From Omnitrophica WOR_2 bacterium GWF2_43_52 (lineage in GTDB: Bacteria > Omnitrophota > Gorgyraeia > Gygaellales > UBA12090): a stretch of 64,000 bases of DNA. The DNA is taken from the NCBI GenBank assembly GCA_001805445.1, contig MHGF01000038.1, forward strand, positions 4,912-68,911. The letters are read 5' to 3'. The notes under the pieces were generated by a model that saw nothing but the letters and a program-made list of their open reading frames with translations, ran no database searches and was not told the DNA's origin. The position numbers and the translations under genes are program-made. Positions 32,898 through 60,789 of the stretch are shown in pieces; position 1 is the first letter of the stretch; every line of letters begins with the position of its first letter.

Positions 32898-33137
32898 TTA
32901 CTCTAAAATATCTCCAACGATAGAGTCTATAATGACTCCTGCTTTTTTTAAAAACTCAATCCCCTTATCTAAATCCTGTTCTTTGCCCTCCAACTCCAAT
33001 ACTAATTCTCCAACAGTTTCAGTAACCTTTGCCCGGCGGATATTAGGCAAAATGTTATACTTTTTTGCCATCTGAAAGGTAAGCGGCTCTTTGACCAAAT
33101 CTTGCGGAAAGGTAAGTTTTATCACTCGTTTTGCCAT
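32898..33137 (-). CDS. NIL-domain protein (stand-alone)
   Basis: 79 aa. It resembles the C-terminal NIL domain of MetN and NIL-ferredoxin proteins linked to sulfur amino-acid metabolism. Confidence 0.5.
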   Translation of the reverse strand: MAKRVIKLTFPQDLVKEPLTFQMAKKYNILPNIRRAKVTETVGELVLELEGKEQDLDKGIEFLKKAGVIIDSIVGDILE

Positions 33138-33254
33138 TTATTTTTCTCCTTTACACAAGCACAGATGCGCGCGGATGAAAAGATACAGATAATCACAGAT
33201 ATATGCTATCTGCGATCATCCACGGTTTTAAATCTGCAAGTATCTGCGCATTTT

Positions 33255-34079
33255 TTATTTTACGGAACAATCACGATTTGCCTTTATACTACAGAATTCC
33301 TGATAATCAATCAACTTGGTAATTTTGGGATGTGTAGAGCACACCAGGCAATCCTTATCTTTAGGGACCTTTACGGCCCTAAAAGTTGAATCTAAGGCGT
33401 TGAATATGAGAAGCCTTCCTGCCAAAAGATTTCCTGCCTGCAGGATAAATTTCAATACCTCATTTGCCTGTAAAACCCCTAATACCCCTGCGACCGCTCC
33501 TAAAATTCCGCCCTCCTGACAACTGGGCACTGCCCCCGGAGGTGGAGGCTCAGGGAATAAACACCTATAGCACGGGCCTACTCCCGGGACAATAGTCATA
33601 ATCTGCCCGTCAAAACGGAATATCCCGGCGTGCACCAAAGGTTTTTTGGCAATCACGCAGGCGTCATTTACCAGGTAGCGGGTAGGAAAATTATCCGAGC
33701 CATCCACCACAATATCATAATCCTTGATAATATCCAAAATATTGCTTGAATCTAACCGCACATGGTGGGTTATCACGTGTACATCCGGATTCAGCGCTTT
33801 AAGCCGCGCTTTCCCGGATTCAACTTTTGGGGTTCCTACACTCTCGGTAGTATGCAGGATTTGCCTTTGCAGGTTATTTAATTCTACATTATCAGAATCA
33901 ACGATACCAATCGTCCCCACCCCCGCGGCCGCCAGATAAAAATCACAGGGCGCGCCAAGCCCCCCGGTACCAATTACCAAAACCTTTGCTTTTAAAATCT
34001 TATCCTGCCCCTTGCCTCCGACATTCGGCAGTATTATCTGCCGGGAATATCTTTCTATTTGCTCATTAGTTAAAGCCAT
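33255..34079 (-). CDS. ThiF/MoeB/MoeZ-family E1-like adenylyltransferase for a sulfur-carrier protein (no rhodanese domain)
   Basis: [63 protein letters not shown] is the E1 nucleotide-binding motif. CYRC...CLVC form the zinc knuckle. Its start overlaps the end of the carrier gene. Confidence 0.85.
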
Positions 34080-34450
34080 ATCTGGAACTCCTTTGACTCG
34101 TTCGTCACTACGTTTCTCACTCGCTCAGGATGGTTCAACTCAACAATGGTGAGCGAGCGCAAGCGAGTCGAACTACCCCCTGCAATCGCGGGAATTATTG
34201 ATACTTCATTTCCCTCAGAAAGTGCCGTCTCGTCCTGTTTCAGGAAACGAATATCCTCATCGTTCACATAGAAATTAATAAATCTTCTGATTTTTCCGCT
34301 TTCATCCAAAAGCCTTTCCTTAATTCCCGGAAATTGCTTTTCCAAATCCACAATTAATTCCCTGATATTTCCTGCCTCTGCCGTTACCTCTTGCTTATTC
34401 TGAGCAATCTTCTGCAGTGGAGCCGGAATCCTCACCTTTACTTTAGCCAT
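34070..34450 (-). CDS. CysO/MoaD-like ubiquitin-like sulfur-carrier protein with a 34-aa C-terminal extension after the GG
   Basis: [14 protein letters not shown]...[11 protein letters not shown] closely parallels M. tuberculosis CysO (RFVNIYVNDEDVRF...SVTILPAVAGG). The ORF then continues [34 protein letters not shown] before the stop. Confidence 0.75.
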
Positions 34451-34594
34451 TTCACCCTCCTGTTAACTATCAATAAGTGTGGGTCAATAGTCTATAGCCG
34501 ATAGTCTATCCTTTAGTTTTTCTATTGACCATCGACTATCGACCTTCAAATATCATCTACAACGTATAATTTATAACTCATAACTTCTCGCTTC

Positions 34595-35869
34595 TTATAT
34601 ATAATACTCAATCACCTTGTTCTGCGCTATTTTCTGCTTCTCGCCATTTTTGAAATGCTCCTCAAAGCCGGCTAAATTCGGTTTAATCTTAATCAACTTA
34701 GGCAATGACTTTGTAACCACCTCCTGAGTTTTTAAGCCATTTCCGGTAATGCAGATTACAATTGATTCATCAGAGGGTATCACCTTACTTTCAATAAGCT
34801 TTTTGGTTACCGCCAAGGTCACCCCTCCCGCAGTTTCCGTAAATATCCCTTCGGCCTTTGCCAATAATTTTATCGCCTCAATGATTTCCTCATCTGACGC
34901 CTCTTCTGCCCAACCTTTGGATTTACGCACCGTATCCACCGCGTAATAGCCATCCGCGGGATTACCGATAGCCAAGGATTTGGCTATGGTTTTTGGTTTC
35001 ACCGGACGGATAACATCGGATTTCTCTTTTATGGCAGTTACAATTGGCGCGCAGCCTTGGCCTTGGGCGCAATATACCTTGGTAGCAACCTTGTCCACAA
35101 ACCCTAACTTCTCCAATTCCTTAAAGCTTTTCCATATCTTGGTAATCAATGAACCGCCTGCTGACGGCACCACAATATGTTTGGGCAATTTCCAGTCAAG
35201 CTGTTCGGCAATTTCATACCCCATTGATTTTGAACCTTCCGCGTAATAAGGGCGGATATTAATATTCACAAATGCCCAGCGGTATTTAGAAGCGATTTCT
35301 GAACAAAGCCGATTTACCTCATCATAATTTCCTTCAATGCCGATAAGATAAGGATTATAAATAAGCGAGGCCACTACCTTTCCCGCTTCAAGGTCAGCAG
35401 GGATAAAGATAAATGCCCGCAGGCCACACAATGCCGCCTGGGCAGAAACCGAATTTGCCAGATTTCCCGTTGACGCGCAAGCCACCGTATCAAAACCGAA
35501 TTCTTTGGCCTTGGAAACAGCAACCGAAACTACTCTATCCTTAAATGACAGCGTAGGATGATTCACCGAATCGTCTTTAAGATAAAGTTCTTTTACACCC
35601 AAAACCTTCGCTAAATTATTCGCTTTTATTAACGGGGTAAATCCTGATGCTATACCGACGGCAGGTTCTTTATCTATCGGTAAAAGCTCTTTATAACGCC
35701 ACATCGTCTTAGGACGGTCTTTTAATGCCTCTTTGGTGAAGCTCTTTTTAATCTTTGAATAATCATAATCGACCTCCAAAGAGCCAAAACAATATTCGCA
35801 GACGAATAAGACATCTTTAGGATACTCACGTCCGCATTCCCGACATCTTAAGCCTAATACATAGCTCAT
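34595..35869 (-). CDS. Threonine-synthase-family PLP enzyme with N-terminal zinc ribbon (ThrC, or a MetM-like O-phosphohomoserine-dependent homocysteine synthase)
   Basis: CRECGREY...CEYC zinc ribbon and SFKDRV PLP-lysine motif. It lies adjacent to the CysO-like carrier and E1, as in carrier-protein-dependent Met biosynthesis. Confidence 0.75.
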   Translation of the reverse strand: MSYVLGLRCRECGREYPKDVLFVCEYCFGSLEVDYDYSKIKKSFTKEALKDRPKTMWRYKELLPIDKEPAVGIASGFTPLIKANNLAKVLGVKELYLKDDSVNHPTLSFKDRVVSVAVSKAKEFGFDTVACASTGNLANSVSAQAALCGLRAFIFIPADLEAGKVVASLIYNPYLIGIEGNYDEVNRLCSEIASKYRWAFVNINIRPYYAEGSKSMGYEIAEQLDWKLPKHIVVPSAGGSLITKIWKSFKELEKLGFVDKVATKVYCAQGQGCAPIVTAIKEKSDVIRPVKPKTIAKSLAIGNPADGYYAVDTVRKSKGWAEEASDEEIIEAIKLLAKAEGIFTETAGGVTLAVTKKLIESKVIPSDESIVICITGNGLKTQEVVTKSLPKLIKIKPNLAGFEEHFKNGEKQKIAQNKVIEYYI

Positions 35870-35966
35870 CAGGTCTCCCTATGTTAAAAATAATGTTTCG
35901 TGTACCGTTTACCATATCGGTACACGGTAAGCGGTACACGGTACACGCAACAATTATTCTTACGTA

Positions 35967-38390
35967 TTAACTATCAACCCATTTCTTCACTAATACCTTA
36001 TAATACCCATCAACTTTTTTTATCTCTAAAATCTCCTGGCCGTCGTTTTTTAAACTCACAGGGACATTTTGAATCGGCTCTCCTTCATCCAGGCATATCT
36101 CGATGACGTGGCCGATTTTCACATTCTCTAAATATACCTTCGCCTGGACATAATTCATCGGGCAACGTACGCCTCTTAAATTTAACGTTACCGCGGACGC
36201 GCTTTCCTCAGCCTTTACCTGGGGTGCGGGAATTTTCGGGGTAAATTTAAAGGCGCTATCCATATTCTTATAGGCATCCTTGAGCTCACCGAGCAACACG
36301 TGCGCATAGTCGTATAATTCTTTCAAGCGCCCTTTACCGAGGCTACCAGCATTCAGTTCCCAGGCTTTTTCGGTGATATCGTTAAATACCTCCGACACAA
36401 TACCACCTGAGACAAGCCTTTCCTTAAAATAGCGTAATGCCTCTAAATCATTTTTCGGCTCTAAACCAAAGGCAACCAGCAGGCTCCGGCTTGAAAAGCT
36501 TAAAACCCTATACAATTCCTTGGTTATCAGGCCTAAAGACTCCGAGTCAAAATACTCCTTGGCTGCTTTGAGAGAATACCCCGCATCTGCTAAATCCGCT
36601 TCCATCATATCTAAGACGCCAGCCCCGCACTCACCGGGGCCAATACCTGCCAAAGAAAACTCTTCTTCTTTACCCCAGTCAAAATAATACTCTTTATTTT
36701 CCGCGTATGAGGGGCACTTCTCATACTTTTTAGCTAAATCTGCCGCCTCCTGGTAGCCGCGACGCTCTAAATAAGCGTAAAAATCTTCATTGCTATTCTT
36801 ATCGGAAATATACCCTTTCAGAAAGTCTCGCACTATATTCGGAATATCCTTTGCCGGAATAAAAGCGCATTCTTTGGCTAGCGCGGCATCATCTATCCCT
36901 ACCTTACCCCCTAAAAGCATACGGTAAAATGGTACGGAACGGTTATCAAAACGCCTGCTTGCCCCGTAAAAGCTAATCTTTCCTATCGGATGCTGGCCGC
37001 AGGAATTAGGGCAGCCGCTGATTTTAATGTTAAGTTCGGATAATTCCTTTATCCGGTTAAATCCCTCTTTATGTATCATCGCTTCAAGGGCCGCGGCAAG
37101 CCCGCGGGAATTGCAAATTCCCAAATTACAGGTTGCGGCCCCCGTGCAGGAAACAATATCTTCTATTGACTCGGCTTTGCCGGAGACTAACCCTAACTCC
37201 TTTAAACCATAATACACTTCCCCTAATTCCTCTTGGCGGATATAGGGGATAATGATATTCTGATAACTCGTGGTGCGAATCTGCCCCTTATTTAATTTTT
37301 TAAGCAAGCCGCACAATTTTTCTAAAGTATCAGAGCTTATATCTCCCAGCTCCAGGCGGATATGCGCGTAATAATACTCCGGCTGCCTGTGGCTTTGGCT
37401 ATGGCTTTGGCTATCGGAAGCCAAACCACTGCCCTCTGGCCTGTGGCTAAAAACATTTTCCGCGCGCCACTCTTTAAAGCCTTCATCATTGAACACATCT
37501 TTTTGCCCCGCGGTGCTTTTCTTTTGCAGCTCATCCGTATCAGACACAAATTCCAAAGGCTTAATGTTTTCTTGGCGCACTTGCGTTAATTCTTCTTTGT
37601 ATCTTTGCATAAACTCTTCTTTCCCAATCCGCTCAACCAAGAAGCGTAAGCGCGCCTTATGCCTGTTCTTTCTCTCTCCGTATTTATCAAACACTCTAAT
37701 GACCGCTTCGCTGACATACACACAATCGCCTACGGGGATAAACTCCTCAATGCAGAAACCGATCATGGAAGAAAAGCCCATGCCGCCTCCGGAGAAAACC
37801 TTAAAGCCGCGAGCGCCGTTCTTTTTTACCGCCACAAACCCCAAGTCGTTGATTTTTGACAAAGCGCAACATTCCGGGCAGCCGTCAAAAATAATTTTAA
37901 ACTTACGCGGCAGGTTATAATTACGCGGATTTTTCAACAAATAGCCGCTTAAGGCCGCGGAATAACTACTAGTATCAAAAACTTCCTTGGGACAAATTCC
38001 GGAAAGAGGACAATTCATTATGTTGCGTACGGTATTTCCCCCACCGCCGCGAGGGCTAAGCTCAACCTCTGCTAGTTCCCGAATCGCCTTAATCGTATCT
38101 TCTATCTTAACATTATGAATCTGTATGTCCTGGCGCGTAGTAACATGCAAATTGCCTGTGCCATATTTTCTCGCGCAATGGGCTAATTTCTCTAATTGAT
38201 GCACATATGCCTTGCCCGCGATAATGCGCACCCGTACCATAAAAAGCTTTTCTTTACGCTGCCCGTACATGCCGCGGGGGACTCTCATGGGGCGGAATTT
38301 TGCCGCGCTGATTTCGCCGGCTAAGTATCCCTGCAGGTTATTGGCGTAATGTTCCATATCGTCTATAATTTCTTGGGGTAACTTAAACAT
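35967..38390 (-). CDS. Siroheme/[4Fe-4S] nitrite-sulfite reductase-family protein fused to a C-terminal TusA-like sulfurtransferase domain
   Basis: CTGAATCNLGIC...SGCPNSCGQHPIG is the siroheme-4Fe4S cysteine cluster. C-terminal LNLRGVRCPMNYVQAKVYL gives the TusA CPxP motif. An internal low-complexity insert SDSQSHSQSH is present. Confidence 0.8.
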   Translation of the reverse strand: MFKLPQEIIDDMEHYANNLQGYLAGEISAAKFRPMRVPRGMYGQRKEKLFMVRVRIIAGKAYVHQLEKLAHCARKYGTGNLHVTTRQDIQIHNVKIEDTIKAIRELAEVELSPRGGGGNTVRNIMNCPLSGICPKEVFDTSSYSAALSGYLLKNPRNYNLPRKFKIIFDGCPECCALSKINDLGFVAVKKNGARGFKVFSGGGMGFSSMIGFCIEEFIPVGDCVYVSEAVIRVFDKYGERKNRHKARLRFLVERIGKEEFMQRYKEELTQVRQENIKPLEFVSDTDELQKKSTAGQKDVFNDEGFKEWRAENVFSHRPEGSGLASDSQSHSQSHRQPEYYYAHIRLELGDISSDTLEKLCGLLKKLNKGQIRTTSYQNIIIPYIRQEELGEVYYGLKELGLVSGKAESIEDIVSCTGAATCNLGICNSRGLAAALEAMIHKEGFNRIKELSELNIKISGCPNSCGQHPIGKISFYGASRRFDNRSVPFYRMLLGGKVGIDDAALAKECAFIPAKDIPNIVRDFLKGYISDKNSNEDFYAYLERRGYQEAADLAKKYEKCPSYAENKEYYFDWGKEEEFSLAGIGPGECGAGVLDMMEADLADAGYSLKAAKEYFDSESLGLITKELYRVLSFSSRSLLVAFGLEPKNDLEALRYFKERLVSGGIVSEVFNDITEKAWELNAGSLGKGRLKELYDYAHVLLGELKDAYKNMDSAFKFTPKIPAPQVKAEESASAVTLNLRGVRCPMNYVQAKVYLENVKIGHVIEICLDEGEPIQNVPVSLKNDGQEILEIKKVDGYYKVLVKKWVDS

Positions 38391-38515
38391 CTATCTCCTC
38401 TTAAAAGTAAATAATCGCAAGTCTCTAGTCTATAGACGATAGCCATGGTTTCTTTCTTTTATTGACTATCGGCCATCGACTATTGACCCTTCATTATTTT
38501 CTCCTTAACGCGGTT

Positions 38516-39646
38516 TTACAGCTCAAAATACTGCTGCATGCTGGCATAGCGCTCTCCGGTATCTGGTAACACAGTCACTACCGTTTTCCCTTTGCCTAAT
38601 GCTTTAGCAACTTGTAAAGCGACAAATGCCGCGGCACCGCTTGAGATACCTACAAATAATCCCTCTTCCCTCGCAAGCCTGCGGGAGGCCCTATACGCGT
38701 CATTATCAGACACCTTCACTATTTCATCGATTATTTTTAGGTTTAATATATCCGGCACAAACCCCGCTCCAATGCCTTGTATCTTATGCGGCCCAGGTTT
38801 GCCTCCGGAAAGCACAGGAGACGCCTCCGGCTCAACAGCGATAACCCTTACCTTTGGATTAATCTCCTTTAAAACCTCACCTACCCCTGTTATGGTCCCT
38901 CCGGTACCTACGCCTGCCACAAATCCATCGATTTTTTCTCCTACGGCATCAAGAATTTCCTTTGCGGTAGTCTCCCGATGAATTTTTGGATTCGCGGGAT
39001 TTTTGAACTGCTGAGGCATAAAACTGTGTGGGGTATTTTTAAGAATCTCTTCAGCCTTTTTTATTGCTCCGCTCATCCCCTCAATGCCCGGGGTAAGCAC
39101 CACCTCAGCGCCTAATGCCTTTAAAATGTAAATCCTTTCGACTGACATAGTCTCCGGCATAGTAAGCACTACATGGTAGCCTTTGACCGCGCCCACCATA
39201 GCCAAACCTATCCCGGTATTGCCTGAAGTCGGCTCAACAATCGTTGAACCCTCCTTAAGGAGCCCTTGCCTTTCCGCTTCCATAACCATTGACAGGCAAA
39301 TCCTGTCCTTAACTGAGCCGCCCGGATTAAATTGTTCTAACTTCGCATAAATAGCCGCAGAATCTTTTTCAACTATACGGTTAAACTTCACCATCGGGGT
39401 ATTACAAATAAGCTCTAAGACATTATTGGCTAATTTCGGGGACGAACCACCGCCCATAAAGAAAACCAATTCTATCCTATCGTTATCTTTTATGACACTT
39501 TTTAGAAATTCCTCACGGGCGAGTATTGTATCATTATGCTCTACCGTCACCACTTCCGGCCGGATATTTTTTTTCTTGAGTAACTCCGCGACAGAAATTC
39601 CTTCAACTAACTCTTCTTTTTTGCCATTAAGCGTTATCGTCATCAT
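38516..39646 (-). CDS. ThiS-like ubiquitin-like domain (ending GGG) fused in-frame to cysteine synthase (CysK/CysM, PLP)
   Basis: N-terminal 67 aa [23 protein letters not shown]...[14 protein letters not shown] are ThiS-like (compare B. subtilis ThiS ...IEIVHFVGGG). They run straight into NTPMVKF...[10 protein letters not shown], the cysteine synthase PLP-lysine motif. Confidence 0.8.
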
Positions 39647-39663
39647 CGCCGCTCCTTTTTTCC

Positions 39664-40935
39664 TTAATGTAATGCCTTGAGCGCATCATCTATTGTGTTA
39701 ACCGTATATCCCAAGTCTTTATCTGTGTGTACCGCTGAAATAAAACATACCTCATCCGGCGCAGGCGAAAGATACACGCCTTTTGATAATACTGAATGAA
39801 AAAATGAGGCAAATTTACTTTTATCCTGAAACCCAAAATGAAACATCGGGCCAAAATGGTTTAAGCGCGCCGAAACGCCGCTCTTTCGTAGTATCTTTTC
39901 TAACTCCTTATAAAATGCCTCACTTTTCTGGTTAAGCTTTTTATAGAAGTCTTTTGCCCTAAGCATTGTAAACGTAGCAAGCCCCGCGCTTACCGCCACC
40001 GGATTTCCCGATAACGTCCCTGCCTGATACACGCTGCCTAAGGGCGCGACCATCTCCATTATTTCCTTCTTTCCGCCAAATGCGGCCAGAGGAAACCCTC
40101 CGCCGGCAATCTTGCCCAAGCAGGTCAGGTCAGGTTTAATCTTAAAAGCCTTCTGTATACCTCCAAAGCAAAAACGAAAACCGGTAATTACTTCATCAAA
40201 TATAAGCAAGGCCCCGCATTGCTTAGTTATTTTGCGCAGGCCTGCCAGAAAGCCTTTTTCTGGCAGGATCAAGCCGGTATTGGCGGCAATCGGCTCGACA
40301 ATCACACAGGCAATATCGTTATCCCGGGAAAAGGCGTCCTGAACCTGTTCTAAATTGTTATAATCAAGCTCTATTACATTTTCCTCAAGATTCTTCGGAA
40401 TGCCCGCGCTTCGTCCGCTTAAGAAAAAATCGCTATGTCCGTGATAACATTCCTTGAATTTGACGATTTTATTTTTCTTGGTATATGCCCTTGCCAAACG
40501 GATAACTGACATTGCCGCTTCTGTGCCGGAACTTACTACACGCGCCAATTCTATGGATGGAATTGCCTGAATAATACGTTTGGCAAATTCTATCTCAAGT
40601 TTCGTCGCCGCGCCATAGCTGGTGCCTTTTTCTACCGCTTTCTTAACGCAGGCAACAACTCGAGAGTTACTATGGCCCAAAAGTAACGCCCCCCAGGACA
40701 TACAATAATCTATGTAGGTTTTACCGTCTTCACCGATGAATTTTGAGCCTGAAGCTCTCTTCACAAATACAGGAGAACCACCCACCGATTTAAAAGAACG
40801 CACAGGGCTGTTGACCCCGCCGGGGATGTATTTTTGAGCCTCTGCAAACAATCGATCATTGGTGTGCCGGTATGCCGGTGTGCCGGTATGCCGGCTAAAC
40901 TGGCTGACTCGTAAACCCGCTAACTGGTTAACCAT
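39664..40935 (-). CDS. hemL: Glutamate-1-semialdehyde 2,1-aminomutase
   Basis: [13 protein letters not shown]...[15 protein letters not shown]...[16 protein letters not shown]. Start taken at MVNQ. The N-terminus carries a 16-nt x2 tandem repeat. Confidence 0.85.
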
Positions 40936-41942
40936 TTTGCCACATCCTTCGCCCAATACGTAATAATAATGTCCGCACCAGCGCGCTTAATGGAAGTCAA
41001 AATCTCTAATGCCAAATCTCTTTCAATATCTTGTGACTTGTGACTTGTGACTTGTGACTGCGAATAGCTTTTCACCATCGCATACTCACCGCTGACATTA
41101 AACGCAGCTAATGGAACGGAAAACTTCTCTTTGGCCTTAGCGATTATATCCAGATAAGAAAGCGCCGGCTTGACCATCACTATATCCGCGCCTTCCTGAA
41201 TATCCGCTTCTATTTCCCTTAAGGCCTCGTCAGAATTTCGATAGTCCATTTGATAGGACTTCCTGTCCCCAAATTTCATCATACTTCCAGCGGCTTCCCT
41301 AAAAGGCCCGTAAAATCCCGAGGCGAATTTAGCGGAATACCCCATAATCGCTGTCTCCATAAAGCCCTTTTCATCCAGAGCTTTACGGATAGCTCCCACC
41401 TGCCCATCCATCATACTGCTGGGAGCCACAATATCCGCCCCCGCCCGGGCGTGGGAAAGCGCGATTTTGACTAAAACCTTTAGGGTCGCATCATTATCCG
41501 GTATTGCATTTAGCGATGGACGATGGACGATGGACGATGGACGACAATTTTTAAGAATTCCGCAATGCCCATGGCTGGTATATTCACACAAACATACATC
41601 AGTAATTACAACAAGCTCATCCCCGAAATTTTTCTTTAATAGCGCTACTGCCTTCTGAATGACACCATCTTCCTGATAGGCGCTTACCGCCTTTTCATCT
41701 TTATTTTTGGGAATACCAAAGAGGATAATTGAATTTATGCCTACTCGCTTTGCTTCCTCCACATCCTTAAGCAATCTATCGCCAGAAAACCTGAATATCC
41801 CCGGCATAGACTGAATTGGCTGCTTTAACTGCTTACCTTCGCGGACAAAATAAGGCATCACCAAATGTGATACCTTTAGGTTGGCTTGGGCAACCAAATC
41901 CCGTAAAGCAGCATTTTTTCTTAATCTTTTTAACCTACGCAT
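40920..41942 (-). CDS. hemB: Porphobilinogen synthase (delta-aminolevulinate dehydratase)
   Basis: CLCEYTSHGHCG, GADIVAPSSMMDGQVGAIR, GDRKSYQMD, VKPALSYLD, SGEYAMVK. It contains two in-frame heptanucleotide x4 repeat insertions. Confidence 0.9.
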   Translation of the reverse strand: MRRLKRLRKNAALRDLVAQANLKVSHLVMPYFVREGKQLKQPIQSMPGIFRFSGDRLLKDVEEAKRVGINSIILFGIPKNKDEKAVSAYQEDGVIQKAVALLKKNFGDELVVITDVCLCEYTSHGHCGILKNCRPSSIVHRPSLNAIPDNDATLKVLVKIALSHARAGADIVAPSSMMDGQVGAIRKALDEKGFMETAIMGYSAKFASGFYGPFREAAGSMMKFGDRKSYQMDYRNSDEALREIEADIQEGADIVMVKPALSYLDIIAKAKEKFSVPLAAFNVSGEYAMVKSYSQSQVTSHKSQDIERDLALEILTSIKRAGADIIITYWAKDVAKWLTS

Positions 41943-42354
41943 TTTCTATAACCAATTCCTCTTCAATAATCTTGCCTTCCACAATCTTAAACGAACGCAC
42001 CTGCGGCTGTCCGGGATCAGACAAAGATACAATTATATAAGAACTCTCCGGGTAAAACGCCAGTTCAATATCTCTTTGTGACGGATAGGCTTGGCTGTCA
42101 ACGTGAGAATGATATATGGCAACCATTTCTATCGCCTGCTTACGCAGTTCTTTAAACACCGCCAACTGTTCCTTAGGGTCAATATGATAACAGAGCTTGG
42201 GGCTGTCGGAAATATTAGTTAAAGGAAATATTTTTTCAATACGCGCGGCTTTACCGGCAAGGATCCCACAGGTTTCTTTCTGCGGCTCCTTAAGGCAATA
42301 AGCAAGAAGCTCGTTATACATAGCCTTTTTTATGAAAATCTTTGACTTGCGCAT
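41935..42354 (-). CDS. JAMM/MPN+ zinc metalloprotease (Mec+/CysLP/QbsD-like isopeptidase for ubiquitin-like sulfur carriers)
   Basis: ETCGIL...YHSHVDSQAYPSQRD gives the E...HxH-x7-S-x2-D JAMM motif. Confidence 0.75.
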   Translation of the reverse strand: MRKSKIFIKKAMYNELLAYCLKEPQKETCGILAGKAARIEKIFPLTNISDSPKLCYHIDPKEQLAVFKELRKQAIEMVAIYHSHVDSQAYPSQRDIELAFYPESSYIIVSLSDPGQPQVRSFKIVEGKIIEEELVIENA

Positions 42355-42368
42355 TTTTGATTTTGAGC

Positions 42369-43124
42369 TTATTTAGTTATTCCCCATCGTTTGCGCACTG
42401 AATTTTCTATTTTTTTAAAAATAATATTATCCACAACAATAGAAATTGAGGCAATTAAAAGCATGGTTGCCAGAACATAACTCATATCCTTCTGGCCTTT
42501 TGCCCGCATAAGAATATGCCCGACACCCAAACCTGAAACTAGAATTTCAGCAGTCACCAGCCCCCGCCAAGAAAATGCCCAGGCTAAGCGTATGCCCGTA
42601 ATAATCGAAGGCACTGCCGCCGGCAATACTACCTCCCTAAATAAGGTAAGCCCTTTTATCCCGCTTATTCGCGCCTGGTTAATCAACTGCGGCGATACAA
42701 ATTTTATCCCGCTTTCGGTATTTAAGGTAATCACGATCATCGCGCTTATCTGGACGATAAAAATAACCGCCCATTCGTTCTCGCCGAAAAATAATACCGC
42801 AAACGGCGTCCATGCCGCGTGGCCCATTGACTGCAGTCCTAACAGTATACCGCTTACTCCTTCATCAAGCCACTTCAAAAGCCCCATGGCTATTCCCAAT
42901 AAAATCCCTAACGCGACAGCAAGGCTGTAGCCGACGCTGATCCTCAAAAGGCTGGTCTTTAAAGAAACGGCATATTCTCCGGACACACATCCGTGCCAGA
43001 AACTCTCGGCAATCATAAGCAAGGAGGGAAAATTCTTTTCCGAAAAAAATCCCAGCCTAAATGTTGCTTCCCAGATTGCGATCAAAAGGAACCAAAACCC
43101 CGCTCTTCGTAAGAACGTATTCAA
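42369..43124 (-). CDS. ABC transporter permease (nitrate/sulfonate/taurine NitT/TauT family)
   Basis: 251 aa, six TM helices, EAA-like loop. It overlaps the end of the upstream ATPase gene by about 68 nt. Confidence 0.7.
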   Translation of the reverse strand: MNTFLRRAGFWFLLIAIWEATFRLGFFSEKNFPSLLMIAESFWHGCVSGEYAVSLKTSLLRISVGYSLAVALGILLGIAMGLLKWLDEGVSGILLGLQSMGHAAWTPFAVLFFGENEWAVIFIVQISAMIVITLNTESGIKFVSPQLINQARISGIKGLTLFREVVLPAAVPSIITGIRLAWAFSWRGLVTAEILVSGLGVGHILMRAKGQKDMSYVLATMLLIASISIVVDNIIFKKIENSVRKRWGITK

Positions 43125-43899
43125 TATCCATCTCCTCTTTGGCTACCTTCTCAAATTCTTTCTCCAATACTATACTGATATTATCCTGCAGGAATCCAAG
43201 CTGCGGATCGGTCTCCCGCCGAGGATGAGGAAAATTTGCTCTATACTCGGCTAATACTCTCCCCGGGCGCGCTGAAAACACAAAAAGTTTATCCGCGAGG
43301 CACACTGCTTCTTCTATAGAACTGGTAACAAACAATACGGTCTTGCGCGTTTCTTTAAGTATCTGCTGTATTTCATAATGCAGCATAAAGCGGGTTTGGT
43401 CATCAACGCGGCTAAACGGCTCATCCATCAAAAGTATTTTAGGGTCCATTGCCAATGCCCGGGCAATGGCCACCCGCTGCTTCATTCCTGCCGATAACTC
43501 ATGAGGAAAGGCATTGATGAATTTTCCCAAGTGCACTTTTTTTAAGAAACTTATAGCAATGTCTTGCTTTTCCTTTTTTTTTATGGATTTAGCTTTAAGC
43601 GAAAAAATGGCATTTTCTAATACCGTCATCCATGGGAAAAGCGTCGGTTCCTGAAAAATAATCACCCTGTCCGATGAAGGCTCATACACGCATGAATCGT
43701 TGACGCACACAGTCCCCTTGTCAGGCTTGATCAGGCCCGCGATGATATTGAGGATTGTGGATTTCCCGCAGCCGGACGGCCCCACCACGCAGGCAAATTC
43801 CCCTTCTTTAACCTCAAAACTGACATCCTCTATGACGGGGATTTTACCGACGTCTTTTCGCCAGAATGAAATGCTTAAGTTTTCTACTTTTAGGCCCAT
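43057..43899 (-). CDS. ABC transporter ATP-binding protein (SsuB/TauB/CysA-like)
   Basis: GPSGCGKST Walker A, LSAGMKQRVAIARAL signature, LLMDEPFS Walker B. Confidence 0.85.
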   Translation of the reverse strand: MGLKVENLSISFWRKDVGKIPVIEDVSFEVKEGEFACVVGPSGCGKSTILNIIAGLIKPDKGTVCVNDSCVYEPSSDRVIIFQEPTLFPWMTVLENAIFSLKAKSIKKKEKQDIAISFLKKVHLGKFINAFPHELSAGMKQRVAIARALAMDPKILLMDEPFSRVDDQTRFMLHYEIQQILKETRKTVLFVTSSIEEAVCLADKLFVFSARPGRVLAEYRANFPHPRRETDPQLGFLQDNISIVLEKEFEKVAKEEMDIEYVLTKSGVLVPFDRNLGSNI

Positions 43900-43920
43900 T
43901 GTAAAAGAACACAAATTTAC

Positions 43921-43996
43921 ACGAATGACACACGAATCATCACGAATAATTTTATTGTTTTATTCGTGATGATTCGTGTGTCATTCGTGTCCATTC
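43921..43996. promoter_or_regulatory. Perfect 29-bp inverted repeat built from three direct plus four inverted CACGAAT heptamers at about 10-11-bp phasing, in the promoter region of the ABC transporter operon
   Basis: The sequence is acgaatgacacacgaatcatcacgaataa-ttttattgtt-ttattcgtgatgattcgtgtgtcattcgt gtccattcgtgtgt. Confidence 0.5.
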
Positions 43997-44025
43997 GTGT
44001 GTAAAATTGGCATCTTCCAAGTTAC

Positions 44026-44760
44026 CTACGTAAGCTGAAGCGCGTCATCCGAACGCACTTTCTTAAGCGGCCGGGTATGAATACCGCACTCACCGCCGCA
44101 CTTGCTGGTGCCAATCCAGCGGCCAGCGCGCTCGTTATCTTCGCTGGTAATCTTGGTGCAGGGCGCGCAGCCTAAAGAACGGTACCCTTCGGCATATAAA
44201 GAATTAACCTTAACTTGATATATCGCTAAATACTGCCAGACCTCTCTTTCTTTCCAGATAAGGATAGGATTAAGTTTCACCAATCCCTTGTCCCGCTCCT
44301 CAACCTCTTTATAATCAGTGCGAGTCCTGCCTTCGGTGCAGCGCAGCCCGGTAACCCAGCATTTGACTTTCATCTCTTCAATTGCCCGGCTGACCGGCTC
44401 AACTTTTAAAAGGTCGCAGCATTTATCAGGGTCAGTTTCATAAAGCTTATCCGCTATCTTCACATCGTTTTTAAAGATTTTAAGCTCAGGATATTTTGCT
44501 ACTTCCTCATTCATAAACTGAATAGTCTCTGCCGGTTTAAAGCGGGTAGTAACAATAAACCCGCGGATTTTCGGGCTTACCTTTTTTGCCAAATCCCAGA
44601 CCACGACTGAATCTTTACCCAAACTGTTTGCCACCACCAACCCGTCGCCGTATTTCTGATACGCCTCTTTTATCAGCTGAAGCGACCTGTCCACCTTTTC
44701 CTTAAAATTCAGCTTTTCCACCAATTCTTTCAAATCGTCTTTATTGTTCAACAGAGTCAT
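44026..44760 (-). CDS. cysH: Phosphoadenylyl-sulfate / adenylyl-sulfate reductase (CysH family, Fe-S type)
   Basis: PAPS-reductase fold with a C-terminal GGECGIHT (ECGLH-type) motif. The cysteine pairs CCDLL and GCAPC are typical of APS reductases. Confidence 0.8.
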   Translation of the reverse strand: MTLLNNKDDLKELVEKLNFKEKVDRSLQLIKEAYQKYGDGLVVANSLGKDSVVVWDLAKKVSPKIRGFIVTTRFKPAETIQFMNEEVAKYPELKIFKNDVKIADKLYETDPDKCCDLLKVEPVSRAIEEMKVKCWVTGLRCTEGRTRTDYKEVEERDKGLVKLNPILIWKEREVWQYLAIYQVKVNSLYAEGYRSLGCAPCTKITSEDNERAGRWIGTSKCGGECGIHTRPLKKVRSDDALQLT

Positions 44761-44908
44761 TTCTCCTTCTCCTTAAAGAGCACGTAACTTATGGAACGAA
44801 GTGAACATAAGTTACTGTGCGAATTAATCCCGCCGAGTGGAGCAAAATTATCAAAGAGAATTCTGCTCCATCCTACCTGCCTACCAGCAAGCAGGCGAGA
44901 CGTGAAGC

Positions 44909-45349
44909 TCAAATAGAATATACTGCTTCCTTTTTCCCCGCCTTAGCCTGAACGGCTAAGTCCTCAAATGTCACCTTATCCACTATATTGGAAGTGGCCA
45001 TAGCCACCTCTTTACAGACATTCCTTAAAACGCAAAGCCCCATGCTTTTACAGCCGGAATACCTCTCCTCAACACAGGCAATCGGCTCAATCGGCCCGTC
45101 AATGAACCTGACGACCTCTCCCATCTTTATATTTTTAGGATGCCGGGATAAAAGATACCCACCGTTTATACCACGCTTACTCTCAACAAACCTTCCTTTC
45201 TTCAAATCCAGAAGCACCTGCTCTAAAAACTTCACCGGCGCATCCGCCCTTTCGGCAAGCTCGTGAATAGTCACCACTCCCTGGTTATAATGTAAGGCTA
45301 GGTCCAAGACCGCCCTTAAAGCGTAATCCCCTCTATAAGTTATTCTCAT
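44909..45349 (-). CDS. Rrf2-family transcriptional regulator (IscR/CymR-like, three conserved Cys)
   Basis: MRITYRGDYALRAVLDLA...HELAERADAPVKFLEQVLLDLKKGRFVESKRGINGGYLL, then C-x6-C-x5-C. Confidence 0.8.
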   Translation of the reverse strand: MRITYRGDYALRAVLDLALHYNQGVVTIHELAERADAPVKFLEQVLLDLKKGRFVESKRGINGGYLLSRHPKNIKMGEVVRFIDGPIEPIACVEERYSGCKSMGLCVLRNVCKEVAMATSNIVDKVTFEDLAVQAKAGKKEAVYSI

Positions 45350-45454
45350 ATACTATAATCCCCATTGATATAGTAGAGTATACGAAAAATTCTTATTTTG
45401 TCAATATGTTTTTTAATACTAAATCATAACTGATTTATTATTAGTATGTTACGA

Positions 45455-54750: not shown

Positions 54751-57700
54751 CTATTGCGCGCTATAATTCGCCGGCTCCTTGGGCATAACGGTAATTTTGC
54801 TTAAGGCAAACTGCACATCCCGCGCGGGCTTATCCGACTCAAGCAAAATGAGCATCTCCTTTAAGGCTAAAGCAGTAGACACTCCCCTGTCCTCTTCTAA
54901 CCTCAATATCTCCGCAATACAGCCAAGTATTCTACCTATCTCCTGAGCATAGCCTTCTTCTTTTTGCAAAGATGAAGATGCTAAAGCATACTCCCTTATC
55001 CTTTCGCTTGAAGGCATAATCCCGGCATTGACCATAGCCTGAATCTGTTTTAGCTCGTTTTCCAAGTTGATATTGAGGTTTAAGGCCGAGCTGGCTATAG
55101 GCATATTGGTTATCAAGGGCTGATTTAGGGCAGACTGGGTTACGATGGGCAGGGCAGTGAGGTCAATCCCACCAGGTTTATTCTGTAGTGCAGAGGAAGA
55201 GGCAGGTTCAAGCGACTTTAGCTCAAGGGGCGAGGCGGCGGCTGCTTGTAATTCCAGAGGCCTTCCTTTTATCTCTAAAAGCTTGGCTTTTAATATCCCT
55301 TTTTCTGCTTCGGAAATTCCGCGCTTAGGCGGAAAACGGGTGGTAAGAAAAGATATAAGTTTTTCTATCTCCTTCTCTTCCCAATCAAATATTATTTCCT
55401 CTATATTCTTTAATACCGGACCCATCGCTATGTCTCCTAAACCATCCGCGGAAAATAATTCTTTACTTATTTTCTTACGGTCTTCTTCGGATAAACGTTT
55501 TTCTCTCTGTTGGTTTAGGCTTTCCTTAATTTCTTCAGCAGAAGGTTTAAAGTCTTTGAGATTCTCTTTAGTAAGAGTATATGGCATACTGAATTCTGTC
55601 TTAACATCAGAGTTTGATGAAGAAAAATCAAAATAAAGGTCTGTATCCAACGTATTCTTTTTCACTGCGGTTATTCCTTCTTGTCCCCCGTATTTCAAAG
55701 CTTCTTTTCCTGCGGATGATGCATCCGAGAATGAAACCGCGGGCACCATATCTTTTAACAAAAGCTCTGCCAGCCCCTCAAAAACCACCTTGTTTAGGTC
55801 CAGGTTGCTGGCGTTCCAAAGCGGCTGGACTACCACCCCTTGAGGGGTCAATACCAAAACAGCATTAGCTATCATTTTGTCATTGCCATTATATATCCTT
55901 AAGAATAAAGCATTAGTTTCAAGGGCATGAATCATGGGCATCTGATTGTTGCTCTTATGGGGAGCGAAACAGCCCGGAATGCCCACCGCGTAAGTATCTT
56001 TTAAGAAATCCTGGACTATTTCTACGGTTACCTTTTCTGAAGAAATACCTTTGCTTTTATACACCTCTTCAAATCTCTTTGTTTCTCCAAGGATACGTTT
56101 TACTGAATCTTTTACATCTTGCGATAATTTCTCGTTATTAAGAAAATATTCTTTGGCAAAAGCTTCTGCTTCCTGGTGGGAAGTTAGGCCTTTCTCTCTA
56201 TACGAAGCACCTATCTCAATATTATGCATATCGGCAAGCTCAATTAACTGCTCGTTCTGTTGTTTCATCTTATCCGTAATGTCTTCCCCGATGCCTTCCA
56301 TGGGAAGGGTCTTTCTTATGCCTTTATCCCAAAGAAGCGAGCTGTAGCCGCTCTTAAGAAGTTCCGCGTAAACTTCTTTGTTCCACTCTGCTTCTTTAAA
56401 AAGCCACTGGTTGAATCCTTTGGTGTCGCGAAATTCAAGCAGTTTATTAATTGAGAGGGCCGCTTTTTCACATATCCCCGGATACTCACCTTGTAAGCGA
56501 AAATAGAGGCCCACAAAATTACCTATATACGTAGCCATGTAATGAGTATCTAAAAATTCCTTTTCTTCTTCTGTTAAATCTCTATTGATTATCTTCTTAA
56601 ACGCATCGGACTTTACTTGCCGATTAATGATACTCAATTCGCTTAAGAGCTTCTTATCGCCTATACCATCGTTCTTGCTATAGCGGGCTAAAATATCATC
56701 TATCTTCTGGCTGGCATTGTATTCTAACGAAGCACCTTTAAGAATAATCCCTGTTTCTATCAAATAACCCATGGCTCCCCTTAATACTTCGTATTTTTTC
56801 TCAAGGTTCAGAAGGAGCTTTACCTGAGGAGCCATGGCCGGGATGCTGGATAATATATCATCATCCATGGCGGATTTAATAATATCTAAGAAAGAGGTAT
56901 CTCTTTTTCTTAAAAAATCCTCGAAAAAAGAAAGAGCAGGAACCATCTCCGCCTTGCCAAGATAATTAATTATTTCTATAATTTCGCTACGCTCTTTATT
57001 GATAAATTCCACTACCTTATCCCTTAATTTCTGTTCAGATAGGCCAAAAAGGTCTATTATAGATTCGGCTATCAGCTGACTTTCAGGTTTAACAATATTT
57101 ATTAAGGCATTAAGAATATTAACCTTTAGCTCCGGCGCGATTCCTTGATGCTTAAAGACGCTTTTCACGAATGTAGGTATATCCGCTCCAGACTCTTTGA
57201 TAACCTCATTCAAAGAGCCGTCAAGAATTGGCCTGATAAGGAAATCCGGCTGAGCCAGGGAAGAGAATATAAGCCTTACCTTAGCGGCAGAGGGTGAAAG
57301 TTTGGGGTAAAAAACTTCAAGAATTACTTCCAGATTATCAGCAAAAATATTTCTTTCTCCTAACGCATTCATGATAGCTGTTTTATAGTCCTCAGAAGCT
57401 GAGAGAAAATCTTTTCCTAACTCGGGGAGGAGTCTTACTACGGCTCTTCGCGCTTCTTCTCTTGCTGAATCAACAATGCCCTGATTGAATTGTCTTACCA
57501 ACATGTTCATAAAAATGGTTTTTAGGGCATCCGAGGCTGAGGGGAAGTCTTTTTCTAACTGGGGAATAAGTCTGGCGAACGCTTTTTGTGCCAGCTCATA
57601 ACGGCTACTATGGCTTATTAAATCTATAGCCTCAAGGATGGTGATTTTGTAAGTGTCGTATGAAACTGAGGGAAAATCTTCTTCTGTCCGGGGAATTAGG

Positions 57701-60700: not shown

Positions 60701-60789
60701 GTTTGAGCTACCTGGGCAAAGCTCGATTGCTCAAAGATAAATAAAATGGATAAAATGAGAGATAGTATTTTTTTAGGCTTCTCTGGCAT
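54751..60789 (-). CDS. Giant (2012 aa) secreted protein with an internal array of at least 15 roughly 36-40-aa alpha-helical (HEAT/PBS-like) tandem repeats
   Basis: Signal peptide MPEKPKKILSLILSILFIFEQSSFA. Repeat consensus about LxRLIPQLEKDFPxASEAYKTxILxxL. The N- and C-terminal regions (roughly 450 and 600 aa) are non-repetitive with no recognised domain. Confidence 0.7.
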   Translation of the reverse strand: MPEKPKKILSLILSILFIFEQSSFAQVAQTIDISGYFKQAHANSFNQDKFRPLHLRSIGYDNLNNSFSVLLDKGSAPPDSKLALEQVTNELLKYFFIGLTLPNSSFWVNLRPDAPDNIIDDDLAQTDVGKILLEADLQLKKDTAQFTSPETREGKEYWDKLYQKAEELYGTSSNITIPTLTRPWIVPDEVIIRESQDNGSIALTTSAYIYKATLKVMLEQDYLKDSPQYNFKDELQKQLNEYSSQLIRELIIPKLTKEINTSKRYANLRQVYYSLILAQWFKQKYKGRFSESSSLLGRTVPDIDSGDLTNLTSQEPYDKQTYFQQYRKSFKQGEYNHKATIPTAYGQTIRSYMSGGLNLMVGIPLTTQVPGDVPVAGSPVVVIKAERELPMGSNTIGPFKVTGLPAEVDLKMVSSAVQEKADTISPLDTVPLRPDAIVSIKPKGIFRSTFEAYQTFRIRFLKRVAFTGFKAPVRDLERIFPSSSDAHKIAILNALREVNRRVYSHTAKEPLARLIPQLEKDFPLASEAYKTVVLDELRHEHESLARIFPSASEAQKATIINALIGTNSSKAIKALESFIPQLEKDFPLMSNDDYKTASFNLFVKLVQYDVFQPVADALERILPSTSEYQKTAFLDILRDMAITYGSERQKTAIKALERLSPQLKKDFLSTSNEVYKMAIHNTLRRVYSVSSFNSATGEVLTRLIPQMEKDFPSALDAYKTFILDALRYQYASLARIFPLASVVQQNDIVDKLIRDFYENRKTAEFLGSILSVASEHIRTTTIKTLLMETTTRDHHLSDTGVLITSIFSLSSEVQKKAILDIVKNFVIKSDVGKLKQIPRVTSVSLENIHLQMEKDFPLASEAYQKVILDELKYEHPSLVRITPSSSEAQKIVIFNKLTDGSSGQNKSLEIFLLQLVEDYSILSEGFKDIIIKFLKDNLHRNEMYLCREVFLKFIPPMEKDFPLVSEVRQTAIFNDLVYALSAGGYGGYDYIDEKVVEEALARIFRLFSEIRRADIVKDLIKLKNETALRSLIPRTEEDFPSVSYDTYKITILEAIDLISHSSRYELAQKAFARLIPQLEKDFPSASDALKTIFMNMLVRQFNQGIVDSAREEARRAVVRLLPELGKDFLSASEDYKTAIMNALGERNIFADNLEVILEVFYPKLSPSAAKVRLIFSSLAQPDFLIRPILDGSLNEVIKESGADIPTFVKSVFKHQGIAPELKVNILNALINIVKPESQLIAESIIDLFGLSEQKLRDKVVEFINKERSEIIEIINYLGKAEMVPALSFFEDFLRKRDTSFLDIIKSAMDDDILSSIPAMAPQVKLLLNLEKKYEVLRGAMGYLIETGIILKGASLEYNASQKIDDILARYSKNDGIGDKKLLSELSIINRQVKSDAFKKIINRDLTEEEKEFLDTHYMATYIGNFVGLYFRLQGEYPGICEKAALSINKLLEFRDTKGFNQWLFKEAEWNKEVYAELLKSGYSSLLWDKGIRKTLPMEGIGEDITDKMKQQNEQLIELADMHNIEIGASYREKGLTSHQEAEAFAKEYFLNNEKLSQDVKDSVKRILGETKRFEEVYKSKGISSEKVTVEIVQDFLKDTYAVGIPGCFAPHKSNNQMPMIHALETNALFLRIYNGNDKMIANAVLVLTPQGVVVQPLWNASNLDLNKVVFEGLAELLLKDMVPAVSFSDASSAGKEALKYGGQEGITAVKKNTLDTDLYFDFSSSNSDVKTEFSMPYTLTKENLKDFKPSAEEIKESLNQQREKRLSEEDRKKISKELFSADGLGDIAMGPVLKNIEEIIFDWEEKEIEKLISFLTTRFPPKRGISEAEKGILKAKLLEIKGRPLELQAAAASPLELKSLEPASSSALQNKPGGIDLTALPIVTQSALNQPLITNMPIASSALNLNINLENELKQIQAMVNAGIMPSSERIREYALASSSLQKEEGYAQEIGRILGCIAEILRLEEDRGVSTALALKEMLILLESDKPARDVQFALSKITVMPKEPANYSAQ

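Follow-up and report, generated by a model that had tools for sequence, protein, structure and literature searches.

A conserved Omnitrophota gene block with a ThiS–CysK fusion, a second ubiquitin-like carrier and a JAMM protease: a probable operon for protein-thiocarboxylate-dependent synthesis of cysteine and homocysteine

Results

Gene content of the block and collection of related loci

We analyzed a 64,000-nucleotide stretch (referred to here as the window) from the genome of Omnitrophica WOR_2 bacterium GWF2_43_52 (assembly GCA_001805445.1, contig MHGF01000038.1, positions 4,912 to 68,911), in which 13 genes, all on the minus strand, make up one operon span from position 45349 to position 32898 in the list of open reading frames (ORFs). 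All features described below lie on the minus strand and are given in window positions. Domain calls from Pfam and NCBIfam assign the 13 products, in the direction of transcription, to an Rrf2-family regulator, CysH, the ATPase and permease of an ABC transporter, a JAMM (JAB) metalloprotease, HemB, HemL, a fusion of ThiS to CysK, a sulfite reductase fused to TusA, a threonine-synthase-family (ThrC-like) enzyme, a CysO-like carrier, an E1 adenylyltransferase, and a NIL-domain protein. The remainder of the window contains unrelated genes. A preliminary description, made from the letters of this DNA alone, had listed these genes and domains as a co-oriented cluster for carrier-protein-dependent sulfur assimilation; every item on that list was recovered between 32898 and 45349 in the hidden Markov model searches that it proposed, and the order of the genes is conserved in relatives.

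To collect related loci, the first 107 residues of the ThiS–CysK fusion, which span its junction, were used to scan 185,579 species-representative genomes. The scan yielded 112 genomes, from which 80 loci were retrieved and examined; the scan patterns are specific to this ThiS subfamily, and the true range of the block may be wider.

A ThiS-type carrier is fused in frame to a CysK-type cysteine synthase

A single ORF of 376 codons (38516-39646) encodes a ThiS-type ubiquitin-like carrier domain (residues 1-67, ending MGGG; 39446..39646; TIGR01683 61 bits against a cutoff of 37) followed by a CysK-type cysteine synthase domain (residues 77-376; 38516..39418; TIGR01139 453 bits). The domain matches cover residues 4-67 and 77-371, the three glycines occupy residues 65-67 (codons 39446-39454), and a nonconserved, in-frame linker of 9 amino acids separates the two domains. 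Both a ThiS and a PALP domain are present in more than 110 of the best 120 database matches to the fusion (68-100% identity), and seven shorter entries among these 120 begin at an internal methionine. ThiS and CysK form one uninterrupted frame in 69 of the 80 loci, with the MGGG junction in all 69 and 0-19 residues of linker without conserved sequence after it. In the other 11 loci, the two are separate, adjacent ORFs, and MGGG is again kept in every case (11/11); the split ThiS proteins end in MGGG-stop (L019, L029), in MGGGN-stop, or in a random tail of 3-19 amino acids. The question raised earlier of whether relatives carry separate genes thus has a divided answer, with the fused arrangement in most loci and the split one in a minority.

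The preliminary description had also allowed for a stop codon or frameshift between the GGG and the synthase, and more generally the fusion, together with the carrier tail described below, could be a sequencing or assembly artefact. The carrier gene offers a concrete route to such an error, because a TAG stands in the +1 frame right after a run of GGGGG at its GG codons, where one more G would give AGG-stop. The fusion junction DNA, however, is identical in three independent assemblies from different samples, including that of a strain 99.4% identical over 9.6 kb, and the fusion frame is kept across 69 species, which refutes an artefact for the fusion. We regard an artefactual origin as extremely improbable.

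In the AlphaFold2 model of the fusion, there are two confident domains, and the predicted local distance difference test (pLDDT) score falls below 50 only at residues 64-68 and in the C-terminal residues 365-376; the fusion junction is thus predicted to be disordered. Because the split ThiS genes end in MGGG-stop or with a short random tail, ThiS in those loci would act as a free protein with a GGG C-terminus. Together, the invariant MGGG, the variable linker, the split forms, and the low-pLDDT junction suggest that free ThiS ending in GGG is presumably the functional species, and that the fusion is a precursor form from which the carrier is cut free.

The CysK domain is most similar to enzymes of the CysK/OASS-A type, which lead the top 60 matches in the PDB (best match 2egu, 8.8e-121; Mycobacterium tuberculosis CysK1 2q3b, 7e-110), and its 453-bit score with the cysK model compares with 300 and 282 bits for two cysM models, both under cutoff. 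The cysteine synthase previously proposed as a consumer of carrier sulfur is thus present and fused to a carrier, but it belongs to the CysK type rather than to the CysM type of M. tuberculosis. The canonical OASS-A character of this domain favors a different reading, in which ThiS is never cut off and serves as a noncatalytic N-terminal domain of CysK, for example as a docking site or regulator for the E1, the JAMM protease or Rrf2, while CysK acts on free sulfide supplied by the sulfite reductase and the CysO-like protein is the sole sulfur carrier. Such a reading would have a precedent in the non-carrier role proposed for ubiquitin-like domains that are fused to the N-terminus of ThiF (PMC1779556). 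We consider it unlikely, given that all 80 relatives keep MGGG, with a linker behind it that is free to vary in both sequence and length, that ThiS is a separate gene in 11 genomes, two of them with ThiS ending exactly in GGG, and that the junction is predicted to be disordered; moreover, a GG terminus is useful only when it is free for adenylation.

The ThiS domain also passes the cutoff of TIGR01683, a 'thiS' equivalog model, and ThiS beside cysteine synthase genes was noted earlier (PMC1779556). Both points would suit a thiamine role, in which ThiS and the E1 are the thiazole-forming ThiS/ThiF pair and lie near cysteine synthesis since cysteine is the sulfur source of ThiS, as suggested for Chlorobium-type clusters. 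This explanation is very unlikely: thiG, thiH, thiO and thiE are absent from the 13 block genes, all of which are accounted for, and the block recurs in 80 loci without them. One relative (L003) has a gene for a Thi4-type thiazole synthase (L003 599-1450) just upstream of the block. Thi4-type thiazole synthase is not known to use ThiS, and the L003 gene hints that ThiS may not be needed for thiamine in these bacteria.

One of the seven shorter entries mentioned above is the NCBI protein for the fusion gene of the window (38516-39646), which starts at Met64 (MGGGSSPK...) and has 313 amino acids and thus leaves out the ThiS domain.

The CysO-like carrier tolerates extra residues after its invariant GG

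The second carrier has a CysO/MoaD-type ubiquitin-like core (residues 1-92; 34175..34450; Pfam ThiS 1e-15) that ends in IIPAIAGG, a motif invariant in 120 of 120 orthologous carriers. Its best PDB match, over the full length, is CysO of M. tuberculosis (3dwg_C, 1.5e-18), and it is unrelated in sequence to the ThiS-type carrier (BLASTP E = 0.76). It is annotated as a 'hypothetical protein' in the public record. The stand-alone protein of the window has 126 amino acids, with GG at residues 91-92 followed by 34 more residues; this 34-codon extension and its stop (34070..34174) overlap the start of the E1 gene, are lineage-specific, and are the same in three assemblies. In relatives, the carrier ends in GG-stop or GGK-stop and the ATG of the E1 gene follows 1-3 nt later. 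In the window, a hairpin-forming intercistronic element of ~95 nt (34077..34177; folding energy -29.3 kcal/mol, z = -1.69) takes the place of the carrier stop codon and brings a new AAGGAG ribosome-binding site for the E1 gene. A 35-nt core of this insert is 94% identical to an insert between ThiS and CysK in another locus (L080).

Post-GG length varies among the 120 orthologues (0 residues in 20, 1-4 in 83, 5-23 in 16, and 34 only in the window), and the tails show no sequence conservation. A stop-free run of 34 codons is expected by chance with p ~0.11 from base composition, and the length of the tail is by itself unremarkable. Because tails vary and are unconserved and such an open run is readily obtained, we conclude that the 34-amino-acid tail is a lineage-specific read-through into the inserted hairpin, a tolerated accident. 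The tail singled out in the preliminary description is thus real, but it is not a conserved feature of the carrier; nor do relatives uniformly have ordinary GG C-termini, since 100 of the 120 orthologues carry some nonconserved residues after the GG. The informative feature is this tolerance of post-GG residues, not the long tail. A homopolymer error in the GGGGG run was rejected as the source of the tail, given the same DNA in three assemblies. We likewise rejected the insert as a repeated mobile element, as it occurs in one copy in the window at up to 3 mismatches and blastn returned only one partial relative, that in L080; from its sequence, it seems to be one of the many and varied hairpins that lie between cistrons in this genome.

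The same carrier is fused to other partners elsewhere. In six loci (L020, L023, L027, L057, L075, L092), it is joined in frame to the E1 (IIPAIAGG followed directly by [14 protein letters not shown]...), whose initiator methionine is lost, and in four others (L024, L048, L049, L062) it is joined in frame to the NIL protein after the GG. The carrier–E1 fusions likewise would need cutting after the GG.

A complete JAMM protease and an E1 without rhodanese

The JAMM/MPN+ metalloprotease (Prok-JAB 3.5e-22; 41935..42354) has a complete catalytic motif, E27...H82-S-H84-x7-S92-xx-D95 (codons 42070-42111), as had been supposed, and this motif is conserved in 51 of 51 orthologues. Its nearest solved structures are 2kks and PfJAMM1 (5lda). 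Upstream DNA extends far enough in 39 loci, of which 37 have JAB; among these are loci in which nothing follows the GG of the carrier. Taken together, these comparisons strongly imply that the JAMM protease would cleave the carriers after GG.

The E1 is a ThiF/MoeB-type adenylyltransferase of 274 amino acids (33255..34079; ThiF 1.9e-83, residues 11-245), which has two CxxC zinc motifs and a cysteine loop, [10 protein letters not shown], that are conserved in orthologues. The MoeB, UbaA and MoeZ models match the E1 part only, with the MoeZ model NF005902 aligning over positions 14-278 of 392, in agreement with the earlier statement that this E1 lacks a rhodanese domain.

The ThrC-like enzyme and the carrier form a conserved pair

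The ThrC-like enzyme is a protein of 424 amino acids that depends on pyridoxal 5'-phosphate (PLP) and has an N-terminal CxxC...CxxC zinc ribbon (34595..35869; PALP 6.3e-66). In all of 52 loci scored, the next gene is that of the carrier; adjacency was scored by gene order, as stop-to-stop ORF coordinates overlap and a distance-based score gave 26/52. Two neighboring genes of the actinomycete Nonomuraea gerenzanensis encode a similar pair, with 52% identity for the ThrC-like enzyme over its full length and 48% for the carrier. The MetM/MetO-type arrangement suggested at the outset is borne out by this adjacency and by the likeness of the two pairs. MetM is a ThrC homologue that uses the thiocarboxylate of MetO together with O-phosphohomoserine (Hasebe 2024, as cited in 10.1101/2024.10.14.618325). 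We propose, from comparison with the actinomycete pair as a proxy for the characterized MetM and MetO of Streptomyces albulus, that the ThrC-like enzyme is a MetM-like homocysteine synthase.

It could instead be an ordinary threonine synthase, with the CysO-like carrier devoted to cysteine or molybdopterin synthesis. The protein scores above the TIGR00260 and NF006050 'threonine synthase' cutoffs, and threonine synthase is the label of this gene in all public annotations. MetM, however, is often misannotated as threonine synthase according to GapMind (10.1101/2024.10.14.618325), and the gene invariably stands beside a carrier inside a sulfur-assimilation operon (52/52). Moreover, the same pair occurs in the Nonomuraea record, which contains three ThrC-family matches, the best of them being the one next to the carrier. 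An ordinary threonine synthase is thus quite unlikely.

The sulfite reductase is fused to TusA

One ORF of 807 amino acids encodes a siroheme sulfite reductase of the two-repeat NirA/Sir type (residues 1-560) with a helical middle region (residues 561-730; together 36201..38390; NIR_SIR 1e-55 and NIR_SIR_ferr 3.8e-33, two stretches each) and, at its C-terminus, a TusA (SirA) domain (residues 735-803; 35982..36188; TusA 2e-17) with the cysteine of the G-x-x-C-P motif. The TusA domain reported on the reductase is thereby upheld. The G..CP motif is found in 56 of 59 orthologous TusA domains or proteins, and TusA is a free-standing gene in relatives with a small sulfite reductase. The full architecture over residues 1-803 has more than 100 representatives at 50% identity; judged by its sequence relatives, this Sir–TusA fusion belongs to a large existing family and is not unusual.

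The block is conserved in uncultivated lineages

The gene order in relatives is Rrf2, CysH, transporter, JAB, haem genes, ThiS and CysK, sulfite reductase, ThrC-like enzyme, carrier, E1, and NIL. The transporter slot is filled mostly by PHO4 and in some loci by ABC genes, and the reductase slot by either a small sulfite reductase with free TusA or a large one fused to TusA. The ThrC-like enzyme, carrier, E1, TusA and sulfite reductase are all present in 31 of the 34 related loci with enough flanking DNA, and NIL is present in 28 of the 34 with enough downstream DNA. This clustering is far above chance.

The 80 loci come chiefly from uncultivated groundwater and sediment lineages. Judged by record titles, which are labels of metagenome-assembled genomes and may be imprecise, they are mostly Omnitrophota; other titles name WOR-1, Saganbacteria or Margulisiibacteriota, 'uncultured Planctomycetia', Caldisericota, Zixiibacteriota, Dictyoglomaceae, Eisenbacteria, and Endomicrobia. 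Over 21 kb, the window itself matches a contig from a groundwater metagenome (L005) with 100% identity. Of the window and a relative that is 81% identical to it, only the window has the ABC pair and a large reductase fused to TusA.

Regulator, CysH, transporter, haem and NIL genes

The Rrf2-family regulator (44909..45349; Pfam Rrf2 1.5e-34), whose gene opens the block in relatives too, contains a cysteine cluster (C-x8-C-x5-C-x5-C) and matches the CymR and IscR models under their cutoffs; it is a candidate Fe-S or sulfur-status sensor of the operon. A sigma-70-like promoter, TTGACA-16-TATACT, located 5' of this gene (45377..45404), matches the consensus at 11 of 12 positions and, on the strength of this consensus match only, is the likely operon start.

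CysH (44026..44760; PAPS_reduct 5e-40; NF002537 174 bits against a cutoff of 154) is an assimilatory reductase of adenosine 5'-phosphosulfate (APS) or 3'-phosphoadenosine 5'-phosphosulfate (PAPS). Its cysteines are arranged as CC...CxxC...ECGIH, the signature of Fe-S-containing APS reductases. The ABC pair (42369-43914) consists of a TauB/SaoA-like ATPase (43057..43899; ABC_tran 7.8e-34; gene call as in L005) and an SsuC/TauC/NtrB-like permease (42369..43016; BPD_transp_1 7.5e-24; all NCBIfam matches under cutoff). No gene for a binding protein of this pair was found in the cluster, and the slot of the ATPase holds a PHO4/PiT-type permease in most relatives (for example, L001 and L003).

Two haem-pathway genes follow the JAMM gene. 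hemB encodes porphobilinogen synthase (40920..41942; ALAD 1.4e-137; NF006762 462 bits) and would supply the siroheme precursor; compared with the 81%-related genome, it has two small in-frame insertions, of 10 and 7 amino acids. hemL encodes glutamate-1-semialdehyde aminomutase (39664..40935; NF000818 521 bits; 423-amino-acid gene call in L005). The longest hemL ORF (39664-40956) has a 28-amino-acid N-terminal extension from a TTG codon that is not found in relatives and is probably not translated.

The conserved last gene of the block encodes a stand-alone NIL-domain protein of 79 amino acids (32898..33137; NIL 1.7e-16), whose nearest structures are the C-terminal, methionine-binding domains of MetN (E = 1e-3). 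The DUF39 homocysteine pathway likewise includes a protein with a NIL domain, the NIL-ferredoxin protein (PMC5764234). We consider this protein a candidate methionine or homocysteine sensor.

Noncoding inserts and neighboring sequence

All intercistronic gaps of the operon (43915-44025, 38391-38515, 35870-35966, 34451-34594, 33138-33254, and 34077-34177) contain low-complexity, hairpin-forming inserts, each different from the others. These inserts are ~40-100 nt long and built of short repeats, as in a palindrome with a 41-nt arm of CACGAAT-like units; the same junctions in relatives have gaps of only 1-15 nt. They may be mRNA-stabilizing or expression-tuning stem-loops typical of this species. 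A 38-nt inverted repeat (34472-34509 and 38461-38498; 82% complementary) brackets the segment encoding the ThrC-like enzyme and Sir–TusA, where the closest relative has a small reductase and free TusA instead of the large fused reductase; it could be a trace of recombination, or merely a pair of similar low-complexity hairpins. Farther away, a minus-strand ORF of 2012 amino acids (54751-60789) contains several diverged families of internal repeats (D1-D4, ~65-170 nt each), and its product is probably a large repeat protein.

None of sat (ATP sulfurylase), cysC (APS kinase), cysE (serine acetyltransferase), thrB (homoserine kinase), metX, or thiG was found within the 64-kb window.

Discussion

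A proposed pathway with two carriers, one E1 and one JAMM protease

The sequence contains two unrelated carriers, one of the ThiS type ending in MGGG and one of the CysO/MoaD type ending in AGG, together with one E1 and one JAMM protease, and two PLP enzymes of fold type II, CysK and the ThrC-like enzyme, each of which is fused to or lies beside one carrier. We conclude, with fair though not full confidence, that the region probably constitutes a single operon, from Rrf2 to NIL, in which assimilatory sulfur reduction is coupled to protein-thiocarboxylate-dependent synthesis of cysteine and homocysteine. In the proposed pathway, sulfate would be taken up and activated by functions encoded elsewhere in the genome, CysH would produce sulfite, and the sulfite reductase would reduce it. 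The E1 would adenylate the C-terminal glycine of each carrier, and free sulfide or the persulfide of the TusA cysteine would convert the carrier acyl-adenylate to a thiocarboxylate. CysK would then join a serine-derived aminoacrylate to the ThiS thiocarboxylate, and the MetM-like ThrC homologue would join O-phosphohomoserine to the thiocarboxylate of the CysO-like carrier; in both reactions, an S-to-N acyl shift would give a carrier-amino-acid amide. Cutting after the last glycine by the JAMM protease would release cysteine or homocysteine and regenerate the carrier.

If the JAMM protease cuts whatever follows the glycines, the same activity would also mature the precursors, releasing ThiS from CysK after G67 and removing the 34-amino-acid tail. 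Such tolerance of what follows the glycines would likewise account for the random tails and for the fusions to CysK, the E1 and NIL. Mec+, the JAMM protein of M. tuberculosis, hydrolyzes the CysO-cysteine adduct (PMC3227635), and JAMM proteases cut linear MoaD-MoaE fusions to expose the C-terminal glycine (PMC8832034). By analogy, the established JAMM role of hydrolyzing the carrier-amino-acid adduct in every turnover would be the primary one here, and precursor trimming would come with the same specificity.

Several points weigh against this interpretation. The cysteine synthase domain is nearest to sulfide-using CysK enzymes, not to carrier-dependent CysM, and the ThrC-like protein passes the NCBIfam 'threonine synthase' cutoffs. 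TusA would have to gain its persulfide from a sulfite reductase that carries out a six-electron reduction. The 64-kb window lacks ATP sulfurylase, serine acetyltransferase and homoserine kinase, and the supply of substrates would have to rest on genes elsewhere. Finally, the cleavage, the thiocarboxylates and the enzyme activities of these proteins are proposed from comparison with homologues. The pathway outlined in the preliminary description is consistent with the gene content, the gene order and the comparative patterns; it was corrected with respect to the carrier tail, the role of the JAMM protease, the novelty of the wiring, and the type of cysteine synthase.

We tentatively suggest a broader possibility, which we consider less likely than not: that in Omnitrophota and several neighboring candidate phyla, carriers are routinely made as ubiquitin-style precursor fusions (to CysK, the E1, NIL or random tails), with one operon-encoded JAMM protease acting as both maturase and per-turnover hydrolase, with Sir–TusA handing sulfur on as a persulfide and no free sulfide, and with NIL as an unrecognized component. 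If this is true, bacterial metabolism would have a counterpart of its own to the processing of ubiquitin fusions in eukaryotes.

Few organisms have had their protein-thiocarboxylate routes to cysteine and methionine characterized, and in the operon described here a single E1 and a single JAMM protease would serve the two branches together. The invariant MGGG junction, the split forms, and the fusions of the carrier to the E1 or to NIL together make up a natural system in which JAMM-dependent precursor processing in bacteria can be studied, and they are relevant to the question of how a metabolic hydrolase could give rise to the processing of ubiquitin fusions. In addition, public annotation hides ThiS, through the Met64 start, and mislabels the carrier as 'hypothetical' and the MetM-like enzyme as 'threonine synthase', and because of this, cysteine and methionine prototrophy would be misjudged in metabolic reconstructions of these phyla.

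Comparison with known systems

The operon type (class 4e), the thiocarboxylate routes to cysteine, methionine and homocysteine, and the Sir–TusA fusion family are already known. Our literature searches returned no described fusion of ThiS to a cysteine synthase, nor did we find in them descriptions of a ThiS-type carrier paired with an enzyme of the CysK type or of a single E1 and a single JAB shared by both branches. Fusions of the carrier to the E1 or to NIL, and NIL as a conserved member, were likewise not found described.

A 2006 catalogue by Iyer, Burroughs and Aravind (PMC1779556, Table 1 row 4e) lists class 4e operons, which combine a ubiquitin-like protein, JAB, and an E1 without rhodanese with SirA. 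The preliminary description had asked whether its wiring was already known; a rhodanese-less E1 with SirA/TusA, sulfite reductase, PAPS reductase and a transporter has been on record since that catalogue. As in the window, class 4e operons hold carrier, JAB and E1-like genes together, a rhodanese-less E1 with SirA/TusA always present, and linked genes for a sulfite reductase, a PAPS/APS reductase and a sulfate/sulfite transporter (in the window, NIR_SIR, PAPS_reduct and the ABC pair). The consumer in class 4e is MetY (O-acetylhomoserine sulfhydrylase), whereas the window block has no enzyme of the Cys_Met_Meta_PP type and has CysK and the ThrC-like enzyme instead. The window further differs in having a single E1 and a single JAB for two carriers, each from its own subfamily, in the translational fusion of a carrier to its consumer and of TusA to the reductase, and in NIL as a conserved extra member. 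In Wolinella succinogenes, the carrier HcyS is made with an extra residue after GG, and the JAB protein removes it. HcyS, HcyD, HcyF, Sir and MetY of this bacterium, the representative of the operon type that has been studied biochemically, provide thiocarboxylate-dependent methionine synthesis, as cited in PMC6225789 and PMC8191291.

The MoaD-MoaE fusions (Deinococcus DR0402 with DRJAMM; SAMP1-MoaE with HvJAMM1) resemble the ThiS–CysK fusion in having the carrier N-terminal to its partner and glycines at the junction (PMC8832034, PMC4443979). In the window, by contrast, the partner is a PLP cysteine synthase rather than the large subunit of molybdopterin synthase, the JAMM protease is encoded in the same operon, and cleavage is predicted by comparison.

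The CysO-CysM-Mec+-MoeZ(R) pathway of M. tuberculosis shares with the window a carrier of the CysO family (the 3dwg_C match), a fold-type-II PLP cysteine synthase, and a JAMM protein with an intact metal site. Its E1 is fused to rhodanese and its synthase is of the CysM type, whereas the window has no rhodanese and a CysK-type synthase; moreover, the cysteine synthase of the window is paired with the ThiS-type carrier, and its CysO-like carrier lies beside the ThrC-like enzyme. This last arrangement is that of the Streptomyces MetM/MetO system (with Mec and MoeZ), which, as described by Hasebe 2024 through GapMind, shares a ThrC homologue next to a small carrier as well as a JAMM protein and an E1. 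The window differs from it in having an E1 without rhodanese and in the embedding of the enzyme-carrier pair in a sulfate-reduction operon.

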